Assembly: GCA_903846945.1 (NCBI GenBank)
Contig: CAINCE010000073.1
Span: 13,626-77,625 of the forward strand
Reading direction: 5' to 3'
Origin: an uncultured bacterium
Lineage (GTDB): Bacteria; Patescibacteriota; Minisyncoccia; Phycocordibacterales; PALSA-1337
Length of the DNA stretch: 64,000 bases
Shown here: positions 3,021 through 28,853 of the stretch, in pieces
How the letters are laid out: each line of letters opens with the position of its first letter
Position numbering within the stretch: position 1 is the first letter of the stretch
The notes under the pieces: generated by a model
Databases searched by the model: none
What the model saw: the letters and a program-made list of their open reading frames with translations, nothing else
What the model was told of the DNA's origin: nothing
Made by a program: the position numbers and the translations under genes

Positions 3021-3136
3021 TGATTAATAGTATAGCGTCGAACGAGGGTTTGTGGAAGTCCAGCTTTACACAGAACCCGAGTGAAGACGATATATGAACT
3101 TTTCGATTATAGTGCCAAGTGGGGATTTGTGAAAGT

Positions 3137-14219: not shown

Positions 14220-14291
14220 GCCCTCGTGGTGAAATGGATATCATTACTGTCTTCGGAACAGTCGTTGGGGGTTCGAATCCCTCCGGGGGCA
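14220..14291 (+). tRNA. tRNA-Arg (anticodon TCG)
   Basis: Hand-folded 72-nt cloverleaf: acceptor GCCCTCG/CGGGGGC, D-loop with GG, anticodon stem ACTGT/ACAGT, loop CTTCGGA, T-arm GGGGG-TTCGAAT-CCCTC, discriminator A; no encoded CCA (ACAA follows). Confidence 0.75.
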
Positions 14292-14471
14292 CAAATCAAT
14301 AGGTCCGCTAGCGAGCCAACTGCTTGGCTCGCGTCTATGGATTCGAAAAGTCTGAGCATATTTCCAGCCATTTGGGTGGCTGGAAATGCGAAGACTGTAC
14401 CGTTCCCGTAGGGAAAGAATCCCGTAAGGAGGCGGGGTCGCAGGCGAGCATAGCAATGCGAGACCTGTGAC

Positions 14472-14490
14472 CGAATCCCTCCGGGGGCAC
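14472..14490 (+). repeat. 19-nt exact copy of the tRNA-Arg 3' end (cgaatccctccgggggcac), here followed by CA giving CACCA
   Basis: Identical to 14274..14292; no cloverleaf can be built around it, so it is a fragment or att-like direct repeat. Confidence 0.7.
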
Positions 14491-14787
14491 CAAAGGCCAC
14501 TTCTTGTTTCCTAATTCGCTTTGCTCATAAGGAAACAATAGACTTGTCCCGTAATAAGCAGATTTTGAATGATTCATGGCTATGTTAAGCCACATATTGA
14601 TAATTCTTAAAATTTGTCAATTTTACGGCTAAGGTAAGCCCTGATAAGTGGTTTTTTCCTTATTAGGGGACTTGTCTAATGTCGGGCACCCATTTCTTTC
14701 ACGTGAAACATCGAATCACTAGGTTTCATAATATGGCCCAATTATTCCCTCTTGAAAGTGAACAACTGCTAGTATATAATACAAGGC

Positions 14788-15525
14788 ATGCGAAAAGATA
14801 GAGAACAAGCTACAGTCCTTAGGAAGTCTGGGATGTCTTACTCAGACATCATTGCTCGTATGAGTGTACCTAGGAGTACTTTGTCGAAGTGGTTCCATGA
14901 CCAGAAGTGGTCAAATGATATCGCAATAGAAAGTGCTACTAGGGCAAGGAATAGTGGGGCGATCAGGTTCGCTGTTTTGAACACGGTTCGAAAGGGTCGT
15001 CTAGATAATCTACGCAAACAGGCGAGGCAAGATGCATTGCTAGATTTCGAGGATTTGAAATATCATCCACTATTTCTCGCTGGAGTTATGGCGTACTGGA
15101 TGCATGGTGATATAAAGTCCCCAAATAGGGTAAGTTACTCGAGTACTGATCCTGACAAGATCAGACTATTCAAATCGTTCCTAGAGAAGATCTGTGGCAT
15201 TGAGAAGCCTAAGGTGTGGATCAACCTCCCGAGAGGGAATTTAACATTTTTGGCAGAGTCATTTTGGGCAGAAAAGTGCAGTATGAGTGTGGATGACCTT
15301 GGAAAAACTATGATTTCTGGCGGATTTGATGGTTTTCCCAGTGGAAACACAACGATTTCAACTGATTCAAAGAGACAAAGGGTCATAAAGATGGGGAATA
15401 ATCACGGAGTTTGCAATATGGTTGTAAATAGTGCATACTTGAAAAATAAATTTTTGAAATGGGTGGAACTTTTGAAGGATGATCTGCTGAATGAGAGGTA
15501 TTTGAACGATGTTTCACAAATTTAG
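14788..15525 (+). CDS. hypothetical protein with N-terminal resolvase-type HTH
   Basis: 245 aa; LRKSGMSYSDIIARMSVPRSTLSKW HTH; weak LAGLIDADG-like stretch FLAGVMAYWMHGDIK (not confident). Lies between tRNA-Arg and tRNA-Gly. Confidence 0.4.
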   Translation: MRKDREQATVLRKSGMSYSDIIARMSVPRSTLSKWFHDQKWSNDIAIESATRARNSGAIRFAVLNTVRKGRLDNLRKQARQDALLDFEDLKYHPLFLAGVMAYWMHGDIKSPNRVSYSSTDPDKIRLFKSFLEKICGIEKPKVWINLPRGNLTFLAESFWAEKCSMSVDDLGKTMISGGFDGFPSGNTTISTDSKRQRVIKMGNNHGVCNMVVNSAYLKNKFLKWVELLKDDLLNERYLNDVSQI

Positions 15526-15578
15526 ACACGGTTCGTAGTGTAGTGTGTGAAAATCGAGTTCGAGAGTTGAAAATTCAT

Positions 15579-15649
15579 GCGGGTATAGTTTAATGGTAGG
15601 ACGCGTCCTTGCCAAGGACGAGTTGGGAGTTCGATTCTCCCTACCCGCA
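15579..15649 (+). tRNA. tRNA-Gly (anticodon GCC)
   Basis: 71-nt cloverleaf: acceptor GCGGGTA/TACCCGC, anticodon stem CGTCC/GGACG, loop TTGCCAA, T-arm GGGAG-TTCGATT-CTCCC. Confidence 0.8.
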
Positions 15650-15796
15650 CAATGATTCGTGAGCAGGCATGTTATGCCTGCGAATGGAACATCATTGAGA
15701 CGAGGGAGGGAGAAGCGAACGCCGGAGCGTGCGAGGCTAGTAAGCCGAGCCGCGAGGCGGTGCCCAGACCGAACGAGCGGGTAGCGAGTGAGAGTC

Positions 15797-15814
15797 GCGG
15801 GCGATTCTCCCTAC
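15797..15814 (+). repeat. 18-nt exact copy of the tRNA-Gly 3' end (gattctccctacccgcac)
   Basis: Direct repeat of 15632..15649; a second 13-nt repeat aatgattcgtgag occurs at 15650..15662 and 15869..15881. Confidence 0.7.
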
Positions 15815-16100
15815 CCGCACTACTTCGCAAATCAGCTAATCGCTGATTTGCTTCGAAGTGCAGGCACAATGATTCGTGAGGAATAGATGTCCTAAATAAA
15901 TGGCTTAAATTCGTGGAGTAAGGGACAGAACTGTGGATAAGTCTGTGGATAGTGTGTATAAGAGACGAATAGTATGGCTTATTATCGTCTTTTAGGTATT
16001 TTTATGCACCGCCTGCAAGCTAGCGAAGGAAAGGGATATTGGATAGTATGGCTTTATTGCAGAGCATTGAGCAATTACAAATTAATAGACCTTCAAAGTC

Positions 16101-16478
16101 ATGAGTACAAGATCAAAAGGAAATATCGGGGAAAATGTCGCTTGCATATTCCTTGAGAAAAGGGGATTCAAGATCGCTGTGAGGAATTATATGAAGAAAT
16201 GGGGTGAAATAGATATTATTGCTATAAAAGACAAAGTAGTCCATTTCTTTGAAGTAAAGAGTGTGACTTTTAACCCTGTGCATGACTCTGTATCTCATAA
16301 AGCTGAGGATAATGTTCACGGATTCAAAGTTAGACAGATCCGTAGGATGGTCGAGACATTCCTAGAAGAGACGAACAGGGGACTCGATGCGGAGTTTCAT
16401 TTTCATGTATTGTGTGTGTATTTGAACATGGAGACTAGGGGCGCGCGAGTGAAATGGATCAAGGATTTGGTTCTCTGA
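16101..16478 (+). CDS. YraN (UPF0102) family endonuclease
   Basis: 125 aa; GENVACIFLEKRGFKIAVRNY...GEIDIIA...VHFFEVKS matches YraN/UPF0102. Confidence 0.75.
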   Translation: MSTRSKGNIGENVACIFLEKRGFKIAVRNYMKKWGEIDIIAIKDKVVHFFEVKSVTFNPVHDSVSHKAEDNVHGFKVRQIRRMVETFLEETNRGLDAEFHFHVLCVYLNMETRGARVKWIKDLVL

Positions 16479-16570
16479 TTAGATAGCATGTCGGTTTGTC
16501 GGGCTCAATGAAGAATATTCAAACGGAAATAATTTGTAGAATCGCTATAGTGTGCTAACATGACAACATT

Positions 16571-16643
16571 CGGGGCGTGGTGTAACGGCTAACATGCCTC
16601 TTTTGGGAAGAGGTGACTCCGGGTTCGAATCCCGGCGCCCCGA
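16571..16643 (+). tRNA. tRNA-Pro (anticodon TGG)
   Basis: 73-nt cloverleaf with C1:G72 pair typical of bacterial tRNA-Pro; anticodon loop TTTGGGA; T-arm CCGGG-TTCGAAT-CCCGG. Confidence 0.8.
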
Positions 16644-16708
16644 CAAGGTAGATAATGTAAAATTGAACTTCCTCCACACTCTCCTACGCCCCCTCCGTCG
16701 CCGAGGCT

Positions 16709-17230
16709 ATGGAGGGCAAGAAGGCTTCGGAGGGCAAGAAAATCAAAATGGAAAGCTATAAAAAAATAATAAATTTCTTCGATAAGTTTGAGGATAGAGT
16801 TCGCGGACAGTTGAGTCGCTTTCCGATTCTGTACACTTTTATCGGTGGTATTGCCATCGTCTTGTTCTGGAGAGGTGTTTGGCATACGGCGGATATATTA
16901 CAGGCACAAGGAGGTATTTTAGGATGGCTGTTCTACGAACCGATAAACATGTTGATCGTTCTTGTCATATTGCTCGCTACAGGATTGTTCGTTTCATATT
17001 TCATCGGTGATACGATACTCATGAGCGGACTCAAGGGAGAGAAGAAGGCGACAGAGAGGACTGAGAGGGAGATCAAGGAAGAGGAAAAACAGATCCAGGA
17101 GGAAGAGGTGCAGATCAAGCAAGAACAGAAAGAACTGAAAGAAATAAAGGCGTCGATCAGTGACATGAAAGCGGAAGTTGATGAGATCAAGGAGATCGTG
17201 GAGAATGTCGAAAATCAGCATCACAAATAG
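16709..17230 (+). CDS. membrane protein with K/E-rich coiled-coil C-terminus, hypothetical
   Basis: 173 aa; two TM helices then a highly charged EEKQIQEEEVQIKQEQKELKEIK repeat region. Confidence 0.45.
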   Translation: MEGKKASEGKKIKMESYKKIINFFDKFEDRVRGQLSRFPILYTFIGGIAIVLFWRGVWHTADILQAQGGILGWLFYEPINMLIVLVILLATGLFVSYFIGDTILMSGLKGEKKATERTEREIKEEEKQIQEEEVQIKQEQKELKEIKASISDMKAEVDEIKEIVENVENQHHK

Positions 17231-17342
17231 ATTTGGTCCCTTACTAATTCGAGGATATTTTGAAATTACAAAAGACTTCGTGGCCAGTCTTGTTACAACG
17301 CAAAATTATTGCTAGCATTGACTTTGCTCTCAAACAAAACAT

Positions 17343-17413
17343 GCGGGATTAGTTAAATGGTATAATAACAGTTTTCCAAACTGTGGTTGGGAGTTCGATT
17401 CTCCCATCCCGCA
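17343..17413 (+). tRNA. tRNA-Gly (anticodon TCC)
   Basis: 71-nt cloverleaf: acceptor GCGGGAT/ATCCCGC, anticodon stem ACAGT/ACTGT, loop TTTCCAA, T-arm GGGAG-TTCGATT-CTCCC. Confidence 0.8.
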
Positions 17414-17497
17414 CTATCTAAATCGTATTTAAAATTTGAATACAAAAAAGCCGATCCTGATGACCGGTTTGCGTCTCAGCTTTCGTAAGCCCATGAA

Positions 17498-18577: not shown

Positions 18578-19351
18578 CTAATACGTATCTTTTATCGAAT
18601 CAAACATGAAATCAAACATCTTTTCGAACGTTTCGCGTACGGATGCGTTTTCTATGATGGTGATGATAAGTCCACTTTTGAAGTCTGTTATCGACACTTT
18701 GTCTCCGTAAATGATGATTTGTGCTGGGATATAGAAACCATCTGGTATAGTTTTGCGTGTGACGTTGCGGGCCTTGTCTTTCTTTATCAATACGTCCATA
18801 GGAACATCCTCTCTCTTTGGGCCGATGAGTTTTACTTTGATGCCAATTTTCGCTTGTTTTTCGATGTGGGCGCGTAATATCGATGCGGTATCGATATCTT
18901 TGTGATCAAGTAAAGATCTTATCAGTTTTATATCTTTACCTTCGGCTAATATGTCATTATACATTTCCTTTAGTCCATCTGACCCTTCCAGGAATTGAAT
19001 GTTCGGTTTACCAGAAAGCAGGTTAAATTTGGAAGATAGTAAGCCAAATGAATCGTTAAATACAATGTTTGCTTGATCACTTGTTTGCTTTTCTTCTTCT
19101 AGGATGATCTTGATCCTGTTTGGGTGAACAGGGAAGAACATAGATATCTTTCCAACATCATCTCGCTTGGTAATGATACCCTTTTCGACCAGTTGAGCTA
19201 GAACTTTGTAGCAAAGTGCCCGGCCCAGGTTCGTTTTTGTCGAAATAACTCTGGCATTGCATAGTCCATTTTCAAGCAGAAATAAATATATCTTTGACTG
19301 CTCTCTAGTCAGTCCTATGTCGACAAGTGTTTTTTCATCATAGTTTGTCAT
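18578..19351 (-). CDS. TrmB-like HTH transcriptional regulator
   Basis: 257 aa; N-terminal wHTH (LTREQSKIYLFLLENGLCNARVISTKTNLGRALCYKVLAQLVEKGIITK); paralog of 28074..28853 in inverted orientation. Confidence 0.6.
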   Translation of the reverse strand: MTNYDEKTLVDIGLTREQSKIYLFLLENGLCNARVISTKTNLGRALCYKVLAQLVEKGIITKRDDVGKISMFFPVHPNRIKIILEEEKQTSDQANIVFNDSFGLLSSKFNLLSGKPNIQFLEGSDGLKEMYNDILAEGKDIKLIRSLLDHKDIDTASILRAHIEKQAKIGIKVKLIGPKREDVPMDVLIKKDKARNVTRKTIPDGFYIPAQIIIYGDKVSITDFKSGLIITIIENASVRETFEKMFDFMFDSIKDTY

Positions 19352-19442: not shown

Positions 19443-19471
19443 TTGACAAATTCTGTCATCGTGCTATAAAT
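19443..19471 (+). promoter_or_regulatory. sigma70-like promoter candidate
   Basis: TTGACA (19443..19448), 16-nt spacer, TATAAAT (19465..19471), upstream of 19582..19965. Confidence 0.45.
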
Positions 19472-19581
19472 ATGCACAGAAACGGTGGATATGGGATGAG
19501 TATTTACTCGCCGCTATCGTTTGACAATTTAGGGGCATTATATAGGTGGCCCATCAAACTACCAGTTCGGAAAGAAAAGTT

Positions 19582-19965
19582 ATGAAGAAATTCGTTTTTA
19601 TTATGCAGCATACTCCCACTGCTGAACAGGTTACAAGGGCTAGTGAGTCCGGCCAGGTGGTTGAACTCTCGGACAAGAAGTTGCTGTTGGTGCCAGATGA
19701 CCTGTATCTCGATTACGCGTGGTTCGTAAGTCGGGCTGCAGATATTGTTGCGGCGGTCGGCGGCATCTGCCCCGGGGATACGGTACAGGTCATGGGCCAG
19801 CAGCAGTTGGCGATGGTCGTAAACGCCCATGCGCGGAGTTGTGGTGCGGAGCTGGTGGAGTCGGTGACTCCACGGACTTCGAAGGAGGTCCACCAGCCGG
19901 ACGGCACGGTAAAGAAGGAGACGGTATTCTCCTTTGCTGGATTTCGGAAACTCCACAACTACTAG
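19582..19965 (+). CDS. small hypothetical protein P1, paralog of 26786..27172
   Basis: MKKFVFIMQHTPTAEQ...LLLVPDD...GAELVESVTPRTSKEVHQPDGTVKKE; about 60% identical to the minus-strand paralog at the far end of the island; GC-rich. Confidence 0.5.
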   Translation: MKKFVFIMQHTPTAEQVTRASESGQVVELSDKKLLLVPDDLYLDYAWFVSRAADIVAAVGGICPGDTVQVMGQQQLAMVVNAHARSCGAELVESVTPRTSKEVHQPDGTVKKETVFSFAGFRKLHNY

Positions 19966-20005
19966 TTTGTGGACAGGTTGAAAGACCTGAAAAAACTTTC
20001 CTCCA

Positions 20006-20020
20006 CGCATTGAGTCAATG
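20006..20020 (+). terminator. hairpin GCATTGA-GT-CAATGC immediately upstream of HHR1
   Basis: Perfect 6-7 bp palindrome 3 nt before the ribozyme. Confidence 0.4.
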
Positions 20021-20022
20021 CG

Positions 20023-20075
20023 TTGCTTCTCGGAATGTGTATTCCGACTGATGAGTCTGAAAGGACGAAAAGCAA
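20023..20075 (+). ncRNA. hammerhead ribozyme, type III (HHR1)
   Basis: TTGCTTC / stem I TCGGAAT-GTGT-ATTCCGA / CTGATGAG / stem II GTCT-GAAA-GGAC / GAAA / AAGCAA; stem III 6 bp; predicted cleavage after UUC at 20029. Confidence 0.8.
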
Positions 20076-20153
20076 AATTCAGGACTTTAATATATTGGTT
20101 ACATACAATATTCTTCATAGTAACTTGGCGATATCATTTGTCGACAGCTTACT

Positions 20154-20342
20154 ATGAAGAAAGTCGTAGACTCCATCAGTGCAGCAGCTGCTGAAAAAGC
20201 AGCTGAGGCGACGAAGGAAGTACTCAGTGGGTTCAAGCCTGCTGAGAGGCTTCTCCTAGTCGGTCTCGCACTGATCGGACTCGCCATCATTTCTGCAGAT
20301 GGCGAGAAAGAAAAGCAGAAGGGTTCTAGGAAATCCCACTAA
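20154..20342 (+). CDS. small membrane protein, hypothetical
   Basis: 62 aa; one TM helix (LLLVGLALIGLAIISA); directly downstream of HHR1. Confidence 0.4.
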   Translation: MKKVVDSISAAAAEKAAEATKEVLSGFKPAERLLLVGLALIGLAIISADGEKEKQKGSRKSH

Positions 20343-20346
20343 ACAC

Positions 20347-20368
20347 GCTCGTATTCCTAGATACGAGC
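20347..20368 (+). terminator. hairpin GCTCGTAT-TCCTAG-ATACGAGC immediately upstream of HHR2
   Basis: 8-bp perfect stem starting 5 nt after the stop of 20154..20342. Confidence 0.45.
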
Positions 20369-20370
20369 AA

Positions 20371-20418
20371 CTGTCTCGGAATATCGTTCCGACTGATGAG
20401 TCTGAAAAGACGAAACAG
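20371..20418 (+). ncRNA. hammerhead ribozyme, type III (HHR2)
   Basis: CTGTC / stem I TCGGAA-TATCG-TTCCGA / CTGATGAG / stem II GTCT-GAAA-AGAC / GAAA / ACAG; stem III ACAG:CUGU; cleavage after GUC at 20375. Confidence 0.8.
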
Positions 20419-20478
20419 AGTAGTTCTTCACATATTGTATTCATGTAGCTTGCGTCTATATCCTTGGTCGCAGACTAC

Positions 20479-20850
20479 ATGAATACAAACAACAAAGAGG
20501 TAGCCGCAAACTCTATAAAAGCGGTAGAGGCGTACAGGGCACAGATCGCCAATCTGCAGAGTCAAATCTGCAAATTGGAAGAGGCGGCCGCGGTCGCCAT
20601 GGAGACACTCGTCGGGGCGAAGGTTGCCGACGGCTGGAAGAAGTTTGAATACTATTCCAGCTACTACGGGTCGCATAGTGAGCTCGGTGAGGGTGATGAG
20701 GAGAGGACGCTCCTCTTTCACCCCAGTGTGGACTTGTCCACATGGGACGGTGTGTCGTTCTCGCATGGCCATCGTGGCCAGAGCGAGGAAAACGGGCGGT
20801 TCTGTAAGTGGCTCTCCGGTCTCCCGGAAGGTCACTACATCGAACTGTAG
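20479..20850 (+). CDS. hypothetical protein
   Basis: 124 aa from MNTNNKEV; coiled-coil N-terminus; follows HHR2; GC-rich. Confidence 0.4.
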   Translation: MNTNNKEVAANSIKAVEAYRAQIANLQSQICKLEEAAAVAMETLVGAKVADGWKKFEYYSSYYGSHSELGEGDEERTLLFHPSVDLSTWDGVSFSHGHRGQSEENGRFCKWLSGLPEGHYIEL

Positions 20851-20851
20851 T

Positions 20852-20956
20852 GATTTACCTGCTGTAACAGGTTGATTTAACCGGACGAGTCTTTACAGAG
20901 ATTCCTCCACTTCATTGAGCCGTATGAGTGAAAGATTCTCGTCGGTTCATAGAGTT
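20852..20956 (+). ncRNA. conserved structured RNA element, copy A (unclassified)
   Basis: About 105 nt near-identical to 22629..22733: hairpin ACCTG-CTGTAA-CAGGT; hairpin GACGAGTCTT-TACA-GAGATTC..; palindrome CTCAATTGAG; hairpin ATGAG-TGAAAGATT-CTCGT. Covarying base pairs between the two copies. Confidence 0.55.
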
Positions 20957-20978
20957 CGTTAAATGGGAGAAAAAAATT

Positions 20979-21140
20979 ATGGGTATGAACCTAGGTGGTG
21001 TGAAGGTGAAAGGCGGTTCTGGTGGGAAGCGGGGACACTCCGGGATGTGTCATTGGATGCCGACCGAGCAGGTAAAGGTAGTATCCAAGAAGGCCCGCCG
21101 CCGTGAAGATAAGTGCCTGGTTAAGCCTTCGGCCGAGTGA
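20979..21140 (+). CDS. small basic hypothetical protein
   Basis: 53 aa MGMNLGGVKVKGGSGGKRGHSGMCHW...; GGGAG 12 nt upstream. The track's 20928 GTG start lies inside the conserved RNA element. Confidence 0.3.
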   Translation: MGMNLGGVKVKGGSGGKRGHSGMCHWMPTEQVKVVSKKARRREDKCLVKPSAE

Positions 21141-21315
21141 TCGGCTTAGTAACACCTCTAACCAAGGTTGCCACAAAATTCCTCCTTCGCTCTAATGAGC
21201 TATGGAGGGACAAGCCGGTGGTGTAAATCAAGGTAAAGAGTTTTGTCCCCGTCTTTCTCAGAAAAGACGGAGAGCCTAGAGGAAGCAGAGCCTCACCGAG
21301 ATATATCTCTCGGTT

Positions 21316-21388
21316 CTGTCTCGGAATATCGTTCCGACTGATGAGTCCCTCTACATCCTATTCGGGGTGAGAGTGAAGGACGAAACAG
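21316..21388 (+). ncRNA. hammerhead ribozyme, type III with extended stem II (HHR3)
   Basis: CTGTC / TCGGAATATCGTTCCGA / CTGATGAG / extended stem II GTCC-CTCT-A-CATCC-TATTC-GGGTG-AGAG-TGAA-GGAC / GAAA / ACAG. Upstream hairpin CCGAGAT-ATAT-CTCTCGG at 21295..21312. Confidence 0.75.
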
Positions 21389-21410
21389 AGTTGGTCTTTA
21401 AAATCAAATT

Positions 21411-21674
21411 ATGCCAATGTTAAAAACCAATGTGGTGCCGTACAACAAGACGGCGAGCTGCAACCGGCAGCCAGTAAATGTCAACCATCAGCAGAAAATC
21501 GTGGTAGTCAATACACGGTGCGGTGATGGTCAGGAAGGGAAACACCAGACCCATCTGGACGCCATGGTCAAAGTCGAGGCCGAAAAGGGATTCAAAATCC
21601 TTCAGGCATCGACGGTGATCGTGCCAGTGAGTGCTGGGCTGCTCTTCTCTACGACGGTGGTGTTGGTGTCGTGA
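21411..21674 (+). CDS. hypothetical protein
   Basis: 87 aa; follows HHR3 after a conserved acagagttggtctttaaaat spacer. Confidence 0.35.
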   Translation: MPMLKTNVVPYNKTASCNRQPVNVNHQQKIVVVNTRCGDGQEGKHQTHLDAMVKVEAEKGFKILQASTVIVPVSAGLLFSTTVVLVS

Positions 21675-21765
21675 GCGGTGCAGGGTAGACAAGGCTGATG
21701 GTTCCTAGTAATCATTCTCGACCACGGAGTGCAGTGGTAGACGTGATCGCCCTACGGTAGTGGGT

Positions 21766-21796
21766 GCGTAATTCCGAGGGGAAGCTCCTCGGCGCC
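21766..21796 (+). repeat. motif GCGTAATTCCGAGGGGAAGCTCCTCGGCGC (hairpin)
   Basis: Near-identical copy on the minus strand at about 25266..25296; both sit between a gene end and a hairpin+HHR. Confidence 0.5.
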
Positions 21797-21814
21797 TGGT
21801 GAGCGGAAACTACT

Positions 21815-21834
21815 GGAAAGATGCAAATCTTTCC
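21815..21834 (+). terminator. hairpin GGAAAGAT-GCAA-ATCTTTCC immediately upstream of HHR4
   Basis: 8-bp perfect stem 2 nt before the ribozyme. Confidence 0.45.
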
Positions 21835-21836
21835 TT

Positions 21837-21909
21837 CTGTCGCGAAGTTGAACTTCGCCTGATGAGTCCCTCTACATCCTTTTCGGGATGAGAGTGAAGG
21901 ACGAAACAG
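21837..21909 (+). ncRNA. hammerhead ribozyme, type III with extended stem II (HHR4)
   Basis: CTGTC / stem I GCGAAGT-TGA-ACTTCGC / CTGATGAG / same extended stem II as HHR3 / GAAA / ACAG; followed by the same acagagttggtctttaaaat spacer. Confidence 0.8.
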
Positions 21910-21926
21910 AGTTGGTCTTTAAAATT

Positions 21927-22622
21927 ATGAAGCACGTAAATATGACCCCGCGGCAGTGGGGATTCAGTATTGAACCGTTTCCGGCCTTCCGGTCGGAGAT
22001 AGTCTATGGTCGGCACAAGCACGACCAACAGTTTCTCCCTGTTAAGGGAATATCTCCCGTTACCACATTTACTGTGGAAGGCGGAGGAGTCGTTCTCTAC
22101 AAGGGAACGGACTGTGTTCTGGCGCAAAAAACAGTCGCAGACTTTGATGATGTTCAGCGGAAAAAAGTCCCGTTCACATTGTCGCATGCGATATTCACGG
22201 TATCACCGCAGACTCTGCCGGAGAATCGCTTCCAGGTCATCAAGACCAAGGAGAAGGGAACCATCATGGTTGTACCTGGCGAGGACCTGACCAGACGATG
22301 CCTACTGTTCGCAGAGTGCAAGGGTGGGTTTCGTGGCGGCGTTGCACTCATCGGTGGGAGCAATTCAGCTGACGTCATCAAGAAGTGTCATGCCGGAGAT
22401 GCTTGCGATAGCTTGATGGCTGTTATCGCAATACTAGAGGTGGATCAGTCTATCGCATTTCATTCCTGGGGCAGGAGGAAGGACGAAGTCTACCGCCATG
22501 CTTGGGATGGTGAGACCATCAAGGTCGAGCATTATTCCATAGACGAATGGAACGTCAGGAGTGAGCTCATCACTGCCGATGTGGCACAGGCTCATGAAGC
22601 TCTTCCGGGCGACGGAAGTTGA
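21927..22622 (+). CDS. hypothetical protein
   Basis: 231 aa from MKHVNMTPRQWG; follows HHR4; no motif recognised. Confidence 0.45.
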   Translation: MKHVNMTPRQWGFSIEPFPAFRSEIVYGRHKHDQQFLPVKGISPVTTFTVEGGGVVLYKGTDCVLAQKTVADFDDVQRKKVPFTLSHAIFTVSPQTLPENRFQVIKTKEKGTIMVVPGEDLTRRCLLFAECKGGFRGGVALIGGSNSADVIKKCHAGDACDSLMAVIAILEVDQSIAFHSWGRRKDEVYRHAWDGETIKVEHYSIDEWNVRSELITADVAQAHEALPGDGS

Positions 22623-22628
22623 TAGTGG

Positions 22629-22733
22629 TATTTACCTGCTGTAACAGGTTGATTTTAACCAGACGAGTTTTTACAGAAACTCGTCTACTCAATTGAGCTG
22701 TACGAGTGAAAGATTCTCGTCGGTTCATAGAGT
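22629..22733 (+). ncRNA. conserved structured RNA element, copy B (unclassified)
   Basis: See copy A; hairpin here is GACGAGTTTT-TACA-GAAACTCGTC (the C:G pair in A is U:A in B) and ACGAG-TGAAAGATT-CTCGT (U:G in A becomes C:G in B). Confidence 0.55.
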
Positions 22734-22762
22734 GTTCGGTGAAATTTTGCAAAAAAGAAAAT

Positions 22763-23026
22763 ATGTTGAAAATTCCAGTGAATGGTGCGGAGATTCAAGA
22801 GGTCGATGGGGTCGAGTACCTTGTTGCGCGACTGGACAAGACACTGGTGTGTTCAGACTACGTAGACGAGTTGAGGAAGGGTCGTCCCGTAGTTGTGCCT
22901 AGCTCCAAGCGCGGGCATTTGACGACTCAGCTCAAGGCAGGGAACATCTCCACCCGGCAGAAGTCTATGGTTGCCGGACAGTGGATAGCCTTCATACCAT
23001 GTGAAGCGAGGGAGTTCAAGTCCTGA
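22763..23026 (+). CDS. hypothetical protein
   Basis: 88 aa MLKIPVNGAEIQEVDGVEYLVARLDK...; the track's 22706 GTG start lies inside RNA element B. Confidence 0.35.
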   Translation: MLKIPVNGAEIQEVDGVEYLVARLDKTLVCSDYVDELRKGRPVVVPSSKRGHLTTQLKAGNISTRQKSMVAGQWIAFIPCEAREFKS

Positions 23027-23375
23027 TCGTAGGAAAGACTTCCAAAGGATCACTCTAACCTTCTCAAAAGAGTGTATTGTCACCGTAAGAACAATGGTGA
23101 GAGATTTCAAAACACCGTACGAAAGTGCGGTTTTTTCATAGTGAATAAGAGCGTTTTTTACATTGTCCCAAAAACGGAACCACCCCCTTTCGGGGGTTCT
23201 GTAAGCTTTATTGCCGTGAATATTACAGTGAATGCGTGCAAGTTGTGCTAGAGGTATCTTATGTGCTAACATATGCATACACAGAGACATTATCCGAACT
23301 GTCACCGGACGGTGGCTTGGTTGGGACAACCAACATAGGTAGTGTATCGGGAAATCGCCCTTCGGGGCTTTTTCT

Positions 23376-24032
23376 TTATTTAAATCGCCATTCATCCTCG
23401 ATATGTTTCCGAATGATCTTTTTGTAAATAATTCCATCTTGTTTGTTACCCTCATAACTCCTCCGTATGCTCCCAGCGATCATATCAGCCAATTGGATGA
23501 GCACGTTATCTTTTGAGTCTGAAAACTTCAAATTTGAAATCACCTTAATTCCATTTGAGTTAAGAGATTTTCGTAGGTATGATGAAAAATTCCTCCGGAA
23601 AGCCCTGTCTCCACTACCATCAAGCTTGATCTTTGCTTCTAGAATACTCATATCACTGTGTTTCAGTAACATCTTTATGGAATAACTATAAAATGAATTC
23701 TTGTCATTTTTTAACTCATCACTATGTAGGATGGTCTTGTCTATAACCAGTGTTCTAACTTTAAATGCAAACACGTTGATAGTATTCATGAAACCTAGAC
23801 GGACTTTTTTGTTTGACTTGTTAAACTTGAATTCCATCGTATCTGGAAATCCGATACTTCTCCTAAACTCTTTTATGGCCACGGCAACCTTTTCGGCTTC
23901 TAACGGATCGTCGAATATGACAGCGGCAATAACAAAAATCTTGCTCGATCCTCTTTCGAATTTGAATCCAGCATCACCGGAATCATCGATGAATACTAAA
24001 GTTTGCGAATTTTGTGTGTGTTTGCTAAGCAT
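23376..24032 (-). CDS. DUF3800 family protein
   Basis: 218 aa; LVFIDDSGDAGF at the N-terminus and LIQLADMIAGSI near the C-terminus are DUF3800 hallmarks; AT-rich gene inside a GC-rich island. Confidence 0.65.
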   Translation of the reverse strand: MLSKHTQNSQTLVFIDDSGDAGFKFERGSSKIFVIAAVIFDDPLEAEKVAVAIKEFRRSIGFPDTMEFKFNKSNKKVRLGFMNTINVFAFKVRTLVIDKTILHSDELKNDKNSFYSYSIKMLLKHSDMSILEAKIKLDGSGDRAFRRNFSSYLRKSLNSNGIKVISNLKFSDSKDNVLIQLADMIAGSIRRSYEGNKQDGIIYKKIIRKHIEDEWRFK

Positions 24033-24400
24033 ATCGTGGAACTATTATACTCTCGAAATATTGATTGGCTAGTGAGGACAAAAAATCCCCACGAGGCTAC
24101 GGATATAGACATAGGACTTAGTCGAGAAGCGGTGTTTAGAGGAGAGAGATTTTGCAATCACTCACACCGCCTCGCTACATAATCCGATATCATACCCATA
24201 GCCCCGCGGGGACTCGTGTTTAGACACTAATAATAACTCAATGAGCCTGTAAACCTCTAAATTTATAGGCTCAATAAAGTGGAGATTTTCTTGAAATCTC
24301 CAGAAAAGCACCGAGAAACCAATCTCGGAAACCATTATCGCTCCACTCTGCGATCGAGGAAAGTTTTAGAGGGTGACTTTCAACCTATTGACGTCAGCTA

Positions 24401-24940
24401 TTATACCGACGTCTTCTGGAGCCGCGCCATCGCGTGCTCCCACGCGACCGCAGCAGCGGTCGCATCGTACATGGGGTGGTGCGCCACCCCCGCGAACGGC
24501 ACCGCGATGCCGTTCTTTTTGTTATATGCGTCCACTGAGGACGCGTCCTCGCTCAGTGCGAGGAGCGCCGTGCCTAGGTCATGTAGGCACGGATAAGGGC
24601 CCTCGAAGGCCCGTTCGTCGAGATTTCTCTCGACGCAGCGGCGGAACAGCCCCGATTCCACGGGGCTACCGCAATGGGCGATCACAGTCGCCCCTACCTT
24701 TTGGGCCTGCCAAAAGGCCCAGAAGGCCTCTTCCAACTCCTCCGAAGAGGAGTGGGAGACCGGCATCCCCGCCAGAGCGGGGAGAACGTTTGCACGCACC
24801 CAGCCGTCCGACACGGCTGAGTCGGCGATCCGGCCCTCGAAGCGGGCCGTTTCCACACCGTCCACCCGGACGGTCGCGGCGATTGCGAATGACGGGCCAT
24901 ACAGCCCGTCAACTTCTGCGTCACAACTAAAGATTTTCAT
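24401..24940 (-). CDS. DEDDh-type 3'-5' exonuclease (DnaQ-like fold), putative
   Basis: 179 aa, GC-rich; IFSCDAEVDGL (Exo I D-x-E), AHCGSPVESGLF (Exo II-like), HHPMYDATAAA (Exo III H-x4-D); GAGG 13 nt upstream of ATG. Confidence 0.5.
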   Translation of the reverse strand: MKIFSCDAEVDGLYGPSFAIAATVRVDGVETARFEGRIADSAVSDGWVRANVLPALAGMPVSHSSSEELEEAFWAFWQAQKVGATVIAHCGSPVESGLFRRCVERNLDERAFEGPYPCLHDLGTALLALSEDASSVDAYNKKNGIAVPFAGVAHHPMYDATAAAVAWEHAMARLQKTSV

Positions 24941-24954
24941 AATATTCCTACCTC

Positions 24955-25135
24955 TCTATTCGTCCAACAATCTCTTTCTAATCACACATCGTGCGACTAC
25001 ATCCCTCCTCCAGGAATGCTCAACTGAGAAAAAAGACCACCGAAGTTTCGATTGGTAGAATGTATTCATTATGTTCGAGCTTATCTTCTGTAATGATAAT
25101 GAATACGTTCCACCAATCGATAGTAGTAGAAACAT
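24955..25135 (-). repeat. 181-bp conserved 5' leader, copy 1, upstream of the DEDDh exonuclease gene
   Basis: About 95% identical to 27186..27366; contains a roughly 24-bp imperfect hairpin (cgattggtggaacgtattcattat ... ataatgaatacattctaccaatcg). Confidence 0.7.
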
Positions 25136-25146
25136 ATGATATTTTT

Positions 25147-25197
25147 CTGTTTTCGTCCTTTCGGACTCATCAGTCGGGATACACATCCCGAGAACAG
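25147..25197 (-). ncRNA. hammerhead ribozyme, type III (HHR5, minus strand)
   Basis: Minus-strand read: CTGTTC / TCGGGA-TGTGTA-TCCCGA / CTGATGAG / GTCC-GAAA-GGAC / GAAA / AACAG; stem III 5 bp; cleavage after UUC. Preceded on the minus strand by hairpin GGAGAAGCTTTTGGTTAAAAGCTTCTCC (25199..25226). Confidence 0.75.
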
Positions 25198-25335
25198 TGG
25201 AGAAGCTTTTAACCAAAAGCTTCTCCATTTAACCTATGAAGTATTTTCCGCGTGCCTCATCATCACGCGCCGGGGAGCTTCCCCTCGGAATTACGCGGTA
25301 TGTTTATAGTCTTACCGATAAGACTTGAAGTGCTA

Positions 25336-25671
25336 CTACGGCAGCAATTGGTTGCCGTGTTGCTCACGGAGCTTGGCCATTCGTTTGGCCACCCTCCTCT
25401 GCATCGCCGCATACCTGTGCGGCGGTTCGGTGAATCCGGGAACTTCCCGGTTATGTGCGAGGTCGTCGCACATCTGCTCCACCATGATGGCAAGGATGAA
25501 CTCCTTGTCATCATGGGTGAATTCCTGGGACTCGCCCAGGTCCTGTGTCCAAACCAAGTATGGTCGCACTAGCGACTCATACTGGCTGCCGATACTGATT
25601 CCGGCGGCAGTACCCAAATTTTCTGATGTATTCATGCAACCTATTTCCGATCCTTCAGAAACAAATTGCAT
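25336..25671 (-). CDS. hypothetical acidic protein
   Basis: GC-rich ORF; start uncertain (the track's N-terminus MEKLLVKSFST is a translated palindromic hairpin); DKEFILAIMVEQMCDDLAHNREVPGF. Confidence 0.3.
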   Translation of the reverse strand: MQFVSEGSEIGCMNTSENLGTAAGISIGSQYESLVRPYLVWTQDLGESQEFTHDDKEFILAIMVEQMCDDLAHNREVPGFTEPPHRYAAMQRRVAKRMAKLREQHGNQLLP

Positions 25672-25812
25672 GAATACATCTAAGACTCTAAGAGCCAACC
25701 TCCTGGGAGACCGGCTCAATAAAGTGGAGAAGCTTTTAACCAAAAGCTTCTCCATTTAACCTTGCGACGATTTATCCAGTAACGGAAAGGAAGTCGCTGT
25801 TCCTTTGTTGTA

Positions 25813-26424
25813 TTAGGTCATTGCCCGTATAACGGACAGTGAGACGTCTCTGGGGGCGTCACTCTCTCCGACGGGATGCAACCCACCCCTCCAACTCTCG
25901 AGGGCTTCGGTGTACATCCCATGTTTGGTGGGATGATACACATGCGCGGGCTCGCCTCGCAAGAAAGCCCCGTTGGTCCACCAGAATAAAATTAGGGAAA
26001 TGCACTCTTTGTCTTTGTGTGCTTTCCCGTATTCTGATTTGTACCCAGAATCGATAAGGAGCTGCCAGTCAATGTCTGGTAGCTCCTCGACCAACCATTC
26101 CGGGTGGCCGTGATCTTCCCATTGGATTAACTCGTCCAATGGTAGGAAGATGTCTTTCTGAAACACTAGTTTCAGAAAGTAATTCTGTAAATTTTCCGAG
26201 CACAACCGCGTGCTCGCTTCTAGGAGTTGCCGTTGCAACTCCTTGTTCAGCCAGTAGGAGATCTTTCCGTCTCCTGACTGGATGTACCCCTTACAGGTCA
26301 GGCGGTTCGCGCCTGACCTGTAGGTCGTTTCACGAGTCCCCATGCCATCGGGGGACTCGTATTTAACTACTGTTTGCGTGCCGAACGGCTCAACGTCGGC
26401 ACGCAACATTCTCATTTGCGACAT
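25813..26424 (-). CDS. hypothetical protein
   Basis: 203 aa; AAGGAGG 9 nt upstream of ATG on the minus strand; no motif recognised. Confidence 0.5.
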   Translation of the reverse strand: MSQMRMLRADVEPFGTQTVVKYESPDGMGTRETTYRSGANRLTCKGYIQSGDGKISYWLNKELQRQLLEASTRLCSENLQNYFLKLVFQKDIFLPLDELIQWEDHGHPEWLVEELPDIDWQLLIDSGYKSEYGKAHKDKECISLILFWWTNGAFLRGEPAHVYHPTKHGMYTEALESWRGGLHPVGESDAPRDVSLSVIRAMT

Positions 26425-26785: not shown

Positions 26786-27172
26786 TTAGTAGCTGTGGAC
26801 GAGACGGAAGCCCTTGAACGTGAAGATGAACTCCTTCTTCACGGTCCCGTCCGGCTGCGGGATGTCCTTAGACACCCGCGGTGTGACGCTCTCAACGAGC
26901 TCAGCGCCAGCCTGGCGTGCCAGCGCCTGCACAGCGCTAGCCAACTGAGCCTGACCCATAATGTGGGCCACGTCGCCGGCGGAAAATCCGCCGACCGCCA
27001 AGGCGATTTCCTCGGCGCGCTGGACAAACCAGTCACGACCTAGATTGGCGTCGTCCGGAACGATCAAGAGCTTCTTGTCGTTCACCTGGACCACTTCACG
27101 TCCGCCTTCGGACGCCGCGGTGATCTGTTCCGCCGTGGGGACGTGGGACATTATAAATGCAAAAGTTTTCAT
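26786..27172 (-). CDS. small hypothetical protein P2, paralog of 19582..19965
   Basis: 128 aa MKTFAFIMSHVPTAEQ...LLIVPDD...GAELVESVTPRVSKDIPQPDGTVKKE. Confidence 0.5.
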   Translation of the reverse strand: MKTFAFIMSHVPTAEQITAASEGGREVVQVNDKKLLIVPDDANLGRDWFVQRAEEIALAVGGFSAGDVAHIMGQAQLASAVQALARQAGAELVESVTPRVSKDIPQPDGTVKKEFIFTFKGFRLVHSY

Positions 27173-27185
27173 ATTTTTTCTACCA

Positions 27186-27366
27186 TCTATTCGTCCAATA
27201 ATCTCTTTCTAATCACACATTGTGCGACTACATCCCTCCTCCAGGAATGCTCAACTGAGAAAAGAGACTATCGAAGTTTCGATTGGTAGAATGTATTCAT
27301 TATGTTCGAGCTTATCTTCTGTAATGATAATGAATACGTTCCACCAATCGAGAGTAGTAGAAACAT
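27186..27366 (-). repeat. 181-bp conserved 5' leader, copy 2, upstream of P2
   Basis: See 24955..25135. Confidence 0.7.
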
Positions 27367-28073
27367 GCACACGCTTAGGAATCGTTTTATACGATCCCTC
27401 TTATCATGCCGATCTAGAAGTTTGTTACGCTATCGGTCAGCATGACGAAGAGGAATAACATCTAGTGGTATTGCAAAAAAGCAATATTATTCCACCAGTT
27501 TCCTATCATTCGCTATTTCATTTTCAAATTACTTCCTTGATCTTACCGTCACTCCCGATCTCTCTAAAAGATCGGCTTCTGGTTACAAGGACATTTCTGG
27601 GAGCAAATGTGGTTAGCATTCACTCACAGCAGATGTCATTGCGACACTGTGTAGATATCGGACTATAGTCATCACTACCCGTCGGGAGTGACCTTTCTCA
27701 TAGATCTGGTTCGTTTGCAGGGAACCGTCACTATGTAAGCGATATCTGGCAAACAAGATAACAAATGGCTGTTGTCCTTCTCACTCTCTCCTCTTTACCA
27801 TGCTTAGCGGGGTCAAACCCGAGGCCATGGTGCCTGCCCAACATAGGGACTAGAGGTGAAAAGCAATCATTCACTATCTTCATTACTGTAAGGAACTATC
27901 GTTTCCGAACTTCATCTCATCTGGCATAATCATAACATTTATTAACTAGAATGTCAATACACAATGACACGGAACTGTGAGATGTCAGAATAGCCCGTGA
28001 CAAAGCCAGAATAATGGCTTATCCACACATTGTACTTGTCACAAATCCGTGACGATGATATGCTATATTCATC

Positions 28074-28853
28074 ATGTATGAACAAACACTTACAAATGCG
28101 GGGCTTTCAAAAGAGCAGGCATCCGTTTATCAGCTCCTCATGCAGGGAGGATTGACTCCTGCAGGCGTTATTAGCAAAAGGGCGGCCCTAAAGCGTGGTT
28201 TGACGTATAAAGTCCTAGAACAGCTCATAAATATGGGTTTAGTTCAGAAAAGGGACGATCTAGGCAAAATAACGCTATTTCAAGCATCTCATCCTGGCGT
28301 ATTGAGGAAACTTACTGAAACCAAGGCCGAGGAGGTAAAGAACGCCCAAGTATCATTGGAATCAGTGATGGGTAAGATGGTATCAGACTATAATTTGGTG
28401 ACGGGGAAGCCAAATGTGCAGTTTTTCGAAGGTTTGGAGGGGGTAAGGAGGGTATTGGATGATTCTCTGAGTGCTACTGGTGTGATCTATTCATATGCAG
28501 ATATTGAATCAATCGAGAAATATATACATGGGGTTAACGAAAAATACGTTGAAAAGCGTGATAAGTTCAATATCAAAAAGAAAGCAATAATACTAGATAC
28601 GCCATTTGCACGTGATTTTTTGAAAGATTACCATCGAGAAACTACTGATATCAAGCTTATCAAACATGATTCACCTCCATTTCATACAGTTATGCAGGTT
28701 TACGACAACAAGGTTAGTTATATTACGCTGTCTGAAAAGGAAATGATCGGTGTTATCATAGAAGACCCGCACATCTTTGAGATGCATAAATATCTGTTCG
28801 AATATTCTTGGGATAAGGCGGAATCATTGCCGAAACTAGATACTCCTAAATAA
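28074..28853 (+). CDS. TrmB-like HTH transcriptional regulator
   Basis: 259 aa; LSKEQASVYQLLMQGGLTPAGVISKRAALKRGLTYKVLEQLINMGLVQK; paralog of 18578..19351. Confidence 0.6.
   Translation: MYEQTLTNAGLSKEQASVYQLLMQGGLTPAGVISKRAALKRGLTYKVLEQLINMGLVQKRDDLGKITLFQASHPGVLRKLTETKAEEVKNAQVSLESVMGKMVSDYNLVTGKPNVQFFEGLEGVRRVLDDSLSATGVIYSYADIESIEKYIHGVNEKYVEKRDKFNIKKKAIILDTPFARDFLKDYHRETTDIKLIKHDSPPFHTVMQVYDNKVSYITLSEKEMIGVIIEDPHIFEMHKYLFEYSWDKAESLPKLDTPK

Follow-up and report, generated by a model that had tools for sequence, protein, structure and literature searches.

Type III hammerhead ribozymes with adjacent upstream hairpins at gene junctions of a CPR bacterial chromosome

Clusters of hammerhead ribozymes in bacterial genomes were described by Perreault et al. 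(2011), who found that they flank genes and proposed that they process polycistronic RNA; three clustered arrangements were cleaved in vitro in the context of ~2-kb polycistronic transcripts (PMC3088659). According to a 2019 review, the role of self-cleaving ribozymes in bacteria, glmS apart, is largely elusive (PMC6765202). The present analysis concerns a 64,000-nucleotide (nt) stretch of contig CAINCE010000073.1, referred to as the window, from the chromosome of a bacterium of the candidate phyla radiation (CPR). The host is probably a member of Ca. Taylorbacteria, as exact sequence matches connect the window proteins with metagenome-assembled genomes, one of which bears that label. Five hammerheads (HHR1 to HHR5) lie within a 9-kb island of this window, and each is preceded by a hairpin. 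The arrangement resembles the clusters of Perreault et al. in that several co-oriented hammerheads occur within a few kb and flank single genes or short blocks. However, those clusters lie in prophage regions, whereas the island has no phage or integrase signature. Furthermore, the hammerheads here are all of type III and are part of a conserved three-part unit that is not mentioned in PMC3088659, and most copies score below the Rfam gathering threshold. Another precedent is the hammerhead of the haloviruses HF1/HF2, which lies 13 nt before a helicase start codon and whose cleavage site coincides with a mapped 5' end (PMC3088659). There, as here, a ribozyme sits close before a start codon (13 nt, compared with 19 nt for HHR3 and 14 nt for HHR4) in a polycistronic transcript. 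However, HF1/HF2 is an archaeal virus system whose single-copy ribozyme has a variant core suited to high salt and no reported accessory hairpin.

A stem-loop located just upstream of an endonuclease cut shields the upstream mRNA segment from 3' exonucleases. In bacterial operons, endonuclease cleavage gives rise to cistrons of different stabilities (Dar and Sorek 2018, PMC5927463). In RNase E-type operon processing the cut is made by a protein, whereas here the RNA is predicted to cut itself at a fixed nucleotide, leaving a 2',3'-cyclic phosphate and a 5'-OH. A related layout is found in synthetic insulators such as RiboJ, in which a hammerhead-type ribozyme and an adjacent hairpin give the downstream cistron a 5' end that is independent of context. 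The hairpin of RiboJ follows the ribozyme and serves to expose the ribosome-binding site, whereas the hairpin described here lies upstream, is predicted to stack on stem III, and would remain on the upstream product. In retrozymes and viroid-like RNAs, type III hammerheads of the same orientation delimit units whose 5'-OH and 2',3'-cyclic phosphate ends are ligatable (PMC4918200, PMC7229834). In contrast to these, the island holds ordinary open reading frames (ORFs), has no long terminal repeats or reverse-transcription signals, and shows partial stem III compatibility between its ribozymes. A literature search returned no account of hammerheads in CPR, Patescibacteria, or Saccharibacteria, or of a flush upstream hairpin; an earlier description elsewhere is possible. 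The ribozymes themselves belong to a known family, and their use in RNA processing was proposed by Perreault et al. (2011). What appears to be undescribed is the three-part portable module, together with its enrichment in CPR genomes.

The hairpin-hammerhead module in two gene arrays

The window was scanned with 4227 Rfam families, including Hammerhead_3 (RF00008), whose gathering score is 48.5 bits. On the plus strand, this family matched HHR1 (20022..20076, 40.2 bits), HHR2 (20368..20421, 41.2 bits), HHR3 (21313..21391, 42.0 bits), and HHR4 (21834..21912, 37.0 bits), all four within 1.9 kb among plus-strand ORFs. HHR3 has a hairpin inserted in loop II and HHR4 an extended stem II. HHR5, which lies on the minus strand (25145..25199, 37.6 bits) between minus-strand ORFs, was absent from the initial annotation of this DNA and surfaced in the whole-window RF00008 scan. 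The plus-strand ribozymes align over the entire Hammerhead_3 model with E-values of 6e-7 to 2e-5 for a searched length of 4.5 kb, and their whole-window E-values range from 9e-6 to 2.4e-4. The five window ribozymes were used to build a covariance model (R1), against which HHR1 scored 73.3 bits and HHR5 71.4 bits. Further CTGATGA...GAAA strings in the window were not matched by the RF00008 model.

The core nucleotides C3 U4 G5 A6 N7 G8 A9 and G12 A13 A14, read as CTGATGA(G) and (C)GAAA, do not vary among the five ribozymes. All five also have CUGAUGAG, CGAAA, a C17, and the A15.1-U16.1 pair. In the model alignment and the minimum free energy (MFE) folds, loops close stem I (7 bp) and stem II and leave stem III (4-6 bp) open, which is the type III topology. 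The cleavage triplet is UUC in HHR1 and GUC in HHR2-4, and HHR2, HHR3, and HHR4 have a CUGU|C stem III in common. Cleavage is predicted after C20029 (HHR1), C20375 (HHR2), C21320 (HHR3), C21841 (HHR4), and C25192 (HHR5). Stem I of HHR4 and of HHR5 differs from that of HHR1-3 by compensatory pairs, three of which separate HHR4 from HHR3. HHR3 and HHR4 sit in a 91-nt direct repeat of 87% identity, well below the size of a long terminal repeat. The MFE folds of HHR1, HHR4, and HHR5 consist of the hairpin and a three-way junction, and HHR5 folded together with its hairpin has an MFE z-score of -5.8. At the level of sequence and predicted fold, the five elements are confirmed as type III hammerheads with an intact catalytic core. 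The alignment and the core check thus bear out what had been read from the letters alone, namely a full core, closed stems I and II, a short stem III, and GUC or UUC triplets. A sub-variant in which a hairpin inserted in loop II is followed by a conserved UGAA (21347-21382 and 21868-21903) also occurs in other genomes (L041 at 5430, L038 at 2323, L051 at 3115, and L032 at 2608), and the inserts differ in sequence between genomes while their pairing is kept.

A perfect hairpin of 7-13 bp ends 0-2 nt ahead of stem III in 5/5 window modules. H1 (20005..20023, plus strand, 8 bp), H3 (21295..21314, plus, 7 bp), H4 (21815..21834, plus, 8 bp with a GCAA loop), and H5 (25198..25227, minus, 13 bp) are flush with stem III of the ribozyme of the same number, and H2 (20347..20368, plus, 8 bp) ends 2 nt before that of HHR2. 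The hairpins listed in the initial annotation are all real, with the bounds of two corrected (20006-20020 to 20005-20023 and 21295-21312 to 21295-21314), and its spacing of 2-5 nt is replaced by the measured 0-2 nt. Perfect hairpins are common in the island (48 in 9 kb), yet the chance that the end of one falls no more than 4 nt from any given site is ~0.02, and simple arithmetic from the island hairpin density puts the chance of five adjacencies in five at ~4e-9. H1 shows compensatory A-T to G-C changes in an orthologous locus (L123). None of the five pre-ribozyme hairpins is followed by a U-tract, unlike the hairpin at the end of the plus array (23114-23140).

The ribozyme-bearing island has a GC content of 48-54%, compared with 38-45% in its flanks, and consists of two mirrored arrays, each headed by a promoter, that converge on a DUF3800 gene. 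The plus array spans 19582 to 23026 and the minus array 27172 to 24401. A strong sigma-70-like site (19443..19470, plus; TTGACA, 16 nt, TGcTATAAA) heads the plus array and is kept as TTGACA-16-TATGAT in the related locus L001; an automated promoter scan overlooked it because the final base of the -10 hexamer is A. The minus array is headed by a promoter-like site at 27929..27957 (minus; TTGACA, 17 nt, TATGAT, with TG; 11/12). The plus array is closed by a canonical hairpin and U-tract terminator (23114..23140, plus). No promoter or terminator signals comparable to those at the array ends are present at the ribozyme junctions, and the sole promoter-like match inside the plus array is weak (9/12). 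This layout upholds the polycistronic setting proposed in the annotation. The first cistron of the plus array, A0 (19582..19965, plus), is Csx20-like/MJ1673-like (PADLOC Csx20, E=3e-7), and its paralogue (26786..27172, minus) is likewise the Csx20-like first cistron of the minus array. Apart from these two, the DUF3800 gene, and the TrmB-like genes that bracket the arrays, the island genes are ORFans in domain and family scans of their proteins.

What follows the ribozymes? A short motif follows three of them on the plus strand: GUUCUU after HHR2 (20423..20428) and GGUCUUU after HHR3 (21393..21399) and HHR4 (21914..21920). Measured from the end of the Rfam match, the next start codon lies 77 nt (HHR1), 57 nt (HHR2), 19 nt (HHR3), and 14 nt (HHR4) downstream; an ORF 40-80 nt after each ribozyme, as annotated, therefore holds for HHR1 and HHR2, but not for HHR3 and HHR4. 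The identical 20-nt spacer noted for HHR3 and HHR4 is real, but it begins with the 3' strand of stem III (4-6 nt). The plus-strand genes behind the four ribozymes are A1 (20154..20342, 62 aa), A2 (20479..20850, 123 aa), A4 (21411..21674, 87 aa), and A5 (21927..22622, 231 aa). HHR5 serves gene B3 (24401..24940, minus, 179 aa), which has no structural relatives among PDB sequences, and is separated from it by a conserved ~190-nt non-coding leader (24942..25143, minus). A second copy of the leader (27181-27367, minus) precedes the first minus-array gene, and the ORF inside the leader is unconserved, as it differs between the copies. With a leader in both places, cleavage by HHR5 would recreate a 5' region resembling the one with which the minus array opens. 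Between the promoter of this array and its leader lie ~530 nt of conserved non-coding sequence (27400-27929, minus), also found in L001-L005 and L137. Long hairpins hold a start codon in their stem at 20104-20168 (the start of A1), 20435-20488, 25625-25680, and 25048-25120; three of the ORFs start with Met-Asn-Thr because three such hairpins share ATGAATACA.

Relatives of the module and cassette boundaries

Relatives were collected with a pattern fixing the core and stem II (CTGATGAGTCYGAAARGACGAAA), which returned 17 viral contigs and 113 genome stretches. Among the 80 genome matches listed for these 113 stretches, 61 are from CPR/Patescibacteria, 11 from other taxa, and 8 unnamed. R1 found 163 + 45 hammerheads in the collected loci, often clustered. 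In 144 distinct relatives, 99.6% of the cells in paired columns are paired, 630 of them with double-sided changes, and such changes occur at 12/15 pairs; the covariation score is 0.80, compared with 0.24 for shuffles and ~0.1 for slid partners. The U16.1-A15.1 pair is present in 144/144, and H17 is C, U, or A and never G in 186/186. Loop II is always the tetraloop GAAA, and conservation extends to the apical pairs of stem I, which are A-U (109/144) and U-A or U-G (142/144). This is compatible with a putative tetraloop-receptor contact between loops I and II, the kind of contact that fast cleavage at low Mg2+ requires.

The hairpin and the downstream motif were surveyed in 167 hammerheads from 103 loci, mostly in CPR genomes, with offset positions as controls. 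A stable hairpin ends within 3 nt of the stem III core in 126/167 (75%), compared with 19% of controls, and a perfect hairpin occupies this position in 32%, compared with 2.4%. Of the 57 hammerheads whose hairpin is perfect, the hairpin directly abuts stem III in 54%, and in 86% no more than 2 unpaired nucleotides intervene. The hairpin sequences are unrelated. This enrichment, together with the compensatory changes, agrees with the view in the initial annotation that the hairpin is kept as a structure and not as a sequence. Where the hairpin is lacking, 34% of hammerheads have at least 7 bp in stem III, compared with 11% where it is present (p=8e-4). A same-strand coding region in the upstream flank also goes with a higher hairpin frequency (34/40 compared with 10/19, p=0.012), which favors a role of the hairpin at the 3' end of the upstream RNA.

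On the downstream side, a GUUCUU-type motif lies within 25 nt in 36% of the family, compared with 2% of controls (n=167), and GTTCTT itself lies within 28 nt downstream of 42/145 hammerheads and 1/138 controls. It was considered whether GUUCUUU acts as an anti-ribozyme strand that pairs with loop II and the 3' strand of stem II. This candidate was rejected, as the motif is constant whatever the stem II sequence and its duplex energy is no better with its own partner than with permuted partners. Start codons concentrate 10-60 nt past the ribozyme, the nearest upstream stop is mostly 20-60 nt ahead of it, and the ribozymes tend to lie on the same strand as the flanking genes. The genes downstream are heterogeneous, and the first one scanned had no Pfam match. 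Two further candidates were set aside. A lack of Shine-Dalgarno sequences in ribozyme-served genes was seen by eye in A1, A2, A4, and A5, but in the family such sequences occur in 35/107, no less often than in a crude background (19%). Hairpins sequestering start codons are a local trait of the window and not a general feature, since the 80 nt downstream of the family are less structured than controls.

Comparison with related genomes shows where the module lies relative to exchanged DNA. In strain-level relatives, the island occupies the same chromosomal site with different gene content. Between the window and L001/L055, the sequences diverge from 19577 to 20370, and homology resumes exactly at 20371, the first base of the HHR2 stem III. 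On the minus strand, a 910-nt insertion (25195..24286) that is absent from L001 consists of HHR5, its leader, the gene, and most of the terminal hairpin, and is flanked by an 8-nt direct repeat, TCTCCACT. The relative L005 retains the hairpin, HHR5, and leader, and has a different ORF behind them. Thus, as read from sequence comparison, the cassette breakpoints fall at the hairpin/ribozyme junction. Farther afield, in the trio L029/L043/L047, homology is limited to ~100-115 nt made up of the hairpin, the ribozyme, and GTTCTTT. Between loci, 24 module pairs share at least 85% identity across 90 nt or more, and 18/24 have unrelated flanks. These include copies from two lineages, Saccharibacteria and Harrisonbacteria, that are ~95% identical. 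The modules therefore behave as portable units marking cassette boundaries.

An extended version of this arrangement is seen in a Parcubacteria contig (L032), where ~10 hairpin-hammerhead units spaced 135-300 nt apart occur at 2340-3860 and 5880-6530. Stem III is common to all of these units and stem I is different in all. The units flank non-coding stretches that have their own repeated structured motif (ggtcgg..ccgac / cttaagt..acttaagg). From this layout, the module appears to process small RNAs as well.

How the module may act

How would such a module work? The reading favored here, with a probability of about 0.6, is that self-cleavage splits a polycistronic RNA into units with a 3' hairpin and a structured 5'-OH end, and that the hairpin also clamps stem III. 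The predicted cleavage and ends follow from established hammerhead chemistry and bacterial RNA decay. The module of ~110 nt comprises three parts: a stable hairpin, a minimal type III hammerhead with a stem III of 4-6 bp, and, often, GUUCUU(U) shortly downstream. In the island, such modules lie at the internal junctions of two promoter-headed multi-gene transcripts. The hammerhead would fold co-transcriptionally, and the hairpin would stack coaxially on stem III and stabilize it. The ribozyme would then cut after C17. The upstream product would end in a 3' hairpin with a 5-7-nt tail bearing a 2',3'-cyclic phosphate, and 3' exonucleases, among them the PNPase encoded in this genome, may degrade such an end poorly. 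The downstream product would open with a 5'-OH on a first nucleotide paired in stem I, followed by an A/U-rich leader and a start codon 14-80 nt on, or, for HHR5, after the 190-nt leader. Each cistron or short block would thereby become a separate RNA with defined structured ends, with possible effects on its expression. The module marks the edges of exchangeable cassettes and recurs in unrelated contexts; therefore, it is read as a portable expression joint.

Several observations weigh against this reading or narrow its base. All five ribozymes score under the RF00008 gathering threshold (37.0-42.0 compared with 48.5 bits), as do most relatives, with only 4 of ~70 from 18 loci passing; as a result, a default Rfam scan gives no hammerhead. 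The model check proposed in the initial annotation thus gave full-length matches, all of them below threshold. The shortfall stems from loop and insert lengths, the core and pairing being sound. In the MFE folds of HHR2 and HHR3, the hairpin and stems I and II form, but a small alternative pairing is favored over stem III. The collecting pattern fixes the core and stem II, and therefore the family samples a single hammerhead lineage. The strand-context tests use crude ORF calls that are noisy from spurious overlapping ORFs. The hairpin is not obligatory, because 25% of the family and the HHR2 orthologue in L001 and L055 have no adjacent one. Conversely, an identical copy of H5 at 25725-25754 (minus) has no ribozyme after it. 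Finally, the clamp and protection roles of the hairpin are inseparable here because both predict flush adjacency.

The last point leads to the possibility that the hairpin is solely an accessory of the ribozyme, that is, a coaxial clamp that lets a 4-6-bp stem III fold and then allows fast product release, with no protection of the upstream RNA. This is rather unlikely. A clamp role is favored by the flush position of the hairpin and the longer stem III of hairpin-less hammerheads; the hairpin moves with the ribozyme and not with the upstream gene in L029/L043/L047; and half of the hammerheads whose upstream context is on the opposite strand still have one. However, the hairpin is more frequent when a co-oriented gene lies upstream, the breakpoint at 20371 places H2 in the upstream cassette, and the H5 copy at 25725-25754 closes a gene without any ribozyme. 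Moreover, the two roles are not mutually exclusive, and the hairpin is probably a stacking clamp for the ribozyme as well as a 3' cap.

The portability of the module also raises the question of whether it is a selfish or mobile element, miniature and possibly RNA-mediated, that inserts at CPR gene boundaries, with host RNA processing as a by-product. The unrelated flanks of most near-identical pairs, the cross-lineage identity of ~95%, the multiple copies per locus (up to ~10 in L032), and the 8-nt direct repeat bounding the HHR5 cassette speak for such an element. However, homologous recombination between similar hairpin ends explains the direct repeat equally well. The island shows no transposase, integrase, or reverse transcriptase, and PHROG and Pfam gave no mobile-element matches for its proteins. 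The orientation bias with the flanking genes and the start codons 10-60 nt downstream also argue against this explanation, which is judged unlikely.

A more far-reaching proposal is that RNAs lying between hammerheads with the same stem III re-form a ribozyme across their ends, and that the ribozyme itself or an RtcB-type ligase then joins these ends to give circular mRNAs or small RNAs, as in retrozymes and viroid-like RNAs. Stem III strands are cross-compatible in 45/62 neighboring same-strand hammerhead pairs, compared with 30% expected, and when one pair with diverged stem I is taken per locus, stem III is identical in 52%, compared with 21% between loci. The CUGU|C stem shared by HHR2-4 and the L032 units, identical in stem III and different in stem I around non-coding stretches, point the same way. 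However, much of this identity is expected from ancestry, because only three pairs of stem III vary and the majority form in the family is CUGU (82/186). A stronger signal of stem III homogenization within clusters (77% compared with 24%) was rejected, as it was driven by L032 and came near the expectation from three variable pairs once one pair per locus was used. In the window, HHR1 and HHR2 are incompatible, leaving 2/3 adjacent pairs compatible, and circular or spliced products were sought for clustered bacterial hammerheads by Perreault et al. and none were found (PMC3088659). No ligase turned up in the present analysis. Circularization is therefore quite improbable. At similarly long odds, a module that served as a CPR-wide cassette joint with a shared stem III would amount to a DNA-encoded, ribozyme-driven circular-RNA expression system in bacteria.

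It is very improbable that the hairpins are terminators or attenuators, with the hammerheads acting only on read-through or in separately initiated 5' untranslated regions: although the hairpins at 25754..25725 (identical to H5) and 24302..24280 precede CUUUAUUGAG and were flagged as terminator-like, and the HHR2 orthologue of L001 comes after a different intergenic element and not a gene end, the U-tract of the true array end follows 0/5 pre-ribozyme hairpins, the 0-2-nt gap separating hairpin and ribozyme is too short to hold a promoter, and the plus array has just its single weak promoter-like match.

Neighboring elements and biological meaning

The window encodes PNPase, RNase Y, H+-PPase, a type IV pilus ATPase, and RecJ, and the flanks of the island are housekeeping genes. 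Two diverged TrmB-like paralogues (18578-19351, minus, and 28074-28853, plus) face outward and bracket both arrays, and four tRNA genes (Arg-TCG, Gly-GCC, Pro-TGG, Gly-TCC) lie among small ORFs just upstream of the island (14220-17414, plus). The DUF3800 gene at the convergence point (23376..24032, minus; Pfam E=2.5e-18) also matches the candidate defense family PDC-M04A. Adjoining and convergent with it is a DUF3800-IX RNA (RF02968; 23284-23352, plus), a member of its family at 43.1 bits against a gathering score of 36.8. The DUF3800-IX motif class, with no known function, was reported beside DUF3800 genes by Weinberg et al. (2017) (PMC5737381), and the RNA and gene in the window fit this association. 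A phage origin of the island found no support: at E<=0.01, PHROG gave one marginal match (A1, E=0.008), and the island proteins scanned have no Pfam phage, integrase, or mobile-element domains.

Other structured elements occur in the island. Element X (~110 nt; 20852-20977 and 22630-22742, plus) is repeated at gene junctions without a hammerhead, where it takes the same slot as the ribozyme modules, and has copies in L001, L055, and L006. It consists, in order, of a stop-proximal hairpin, a 10-bp hairpin with compensatory changes between copies, and CACTTCATTGAGC. Element Y (21141-21294, plus) is a conserved structured RNA directly upstream of H3/HHR3, with a partial copy at 26754-26670 (minus). 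It precedes modules in at least 5 other genomes (L092 1729-1806, L082 1481-1394, L059 2937-2829, L076 5943-5867, and L137 4660-4581) and has the invariant blocks UUUUGUCCCC, GGAGAGCC, and AGCAGA and two hairpins with compensatory changes. Elements X, Y, and Z and the leader matched no Rfam 15 family at E<=10. A gene-end motif made of a hairpin and CAC(T)TNATTGAG(CC) recurs at 24280-24302 and 25725-25754 (minus) and at ~20903, ~22681, and ~19999 (plus). The island between 19000 and 28000 is rich in perfect hairpins with stems of at least 7 bp, with 48 compared with 3.5 in dinucleotide shuffles (14-fold). B3 alone holds 15, compared with 1.17 +/- 1.05 under synonymous-codon shuffling, and the ORF at 25813..26424 (minus) holds 6, compared with 0.30, whereas the housekeeping genes of the window have 0-1 each. 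Hairpin-dense coding regions are not a general trait near these ribozymes, as the enrichment elsewhere is only 1.7-fold.

The analysis identifies a hammerhead lineage of ~190 relatives that is concentrated in CPR/Patescibacteria and mostly missed by routine Rfam annotation. Its two conserved accessories and its consistent position between cistrons and at cassette edges turn a vague notion of processing into specific, falsifiable predictions. That is, the cleavage coordinates are exact, loss of the hairpin should reduce the cleavage rate and/or leave the upstream RNA shorter-lived, and the joint should insulate any cassette placed behind it. These predictions are testable on real RNA because some Saccharibacteria are culturable with their hosts, and one match is a Nanosynbacter (L037). 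The modules also represent compact natural parts for synthetic operon design. More broadly, the findings suggest that organisms with very small genomes may partly swap protein-based mRNA processing for built-in RNA catalysts.

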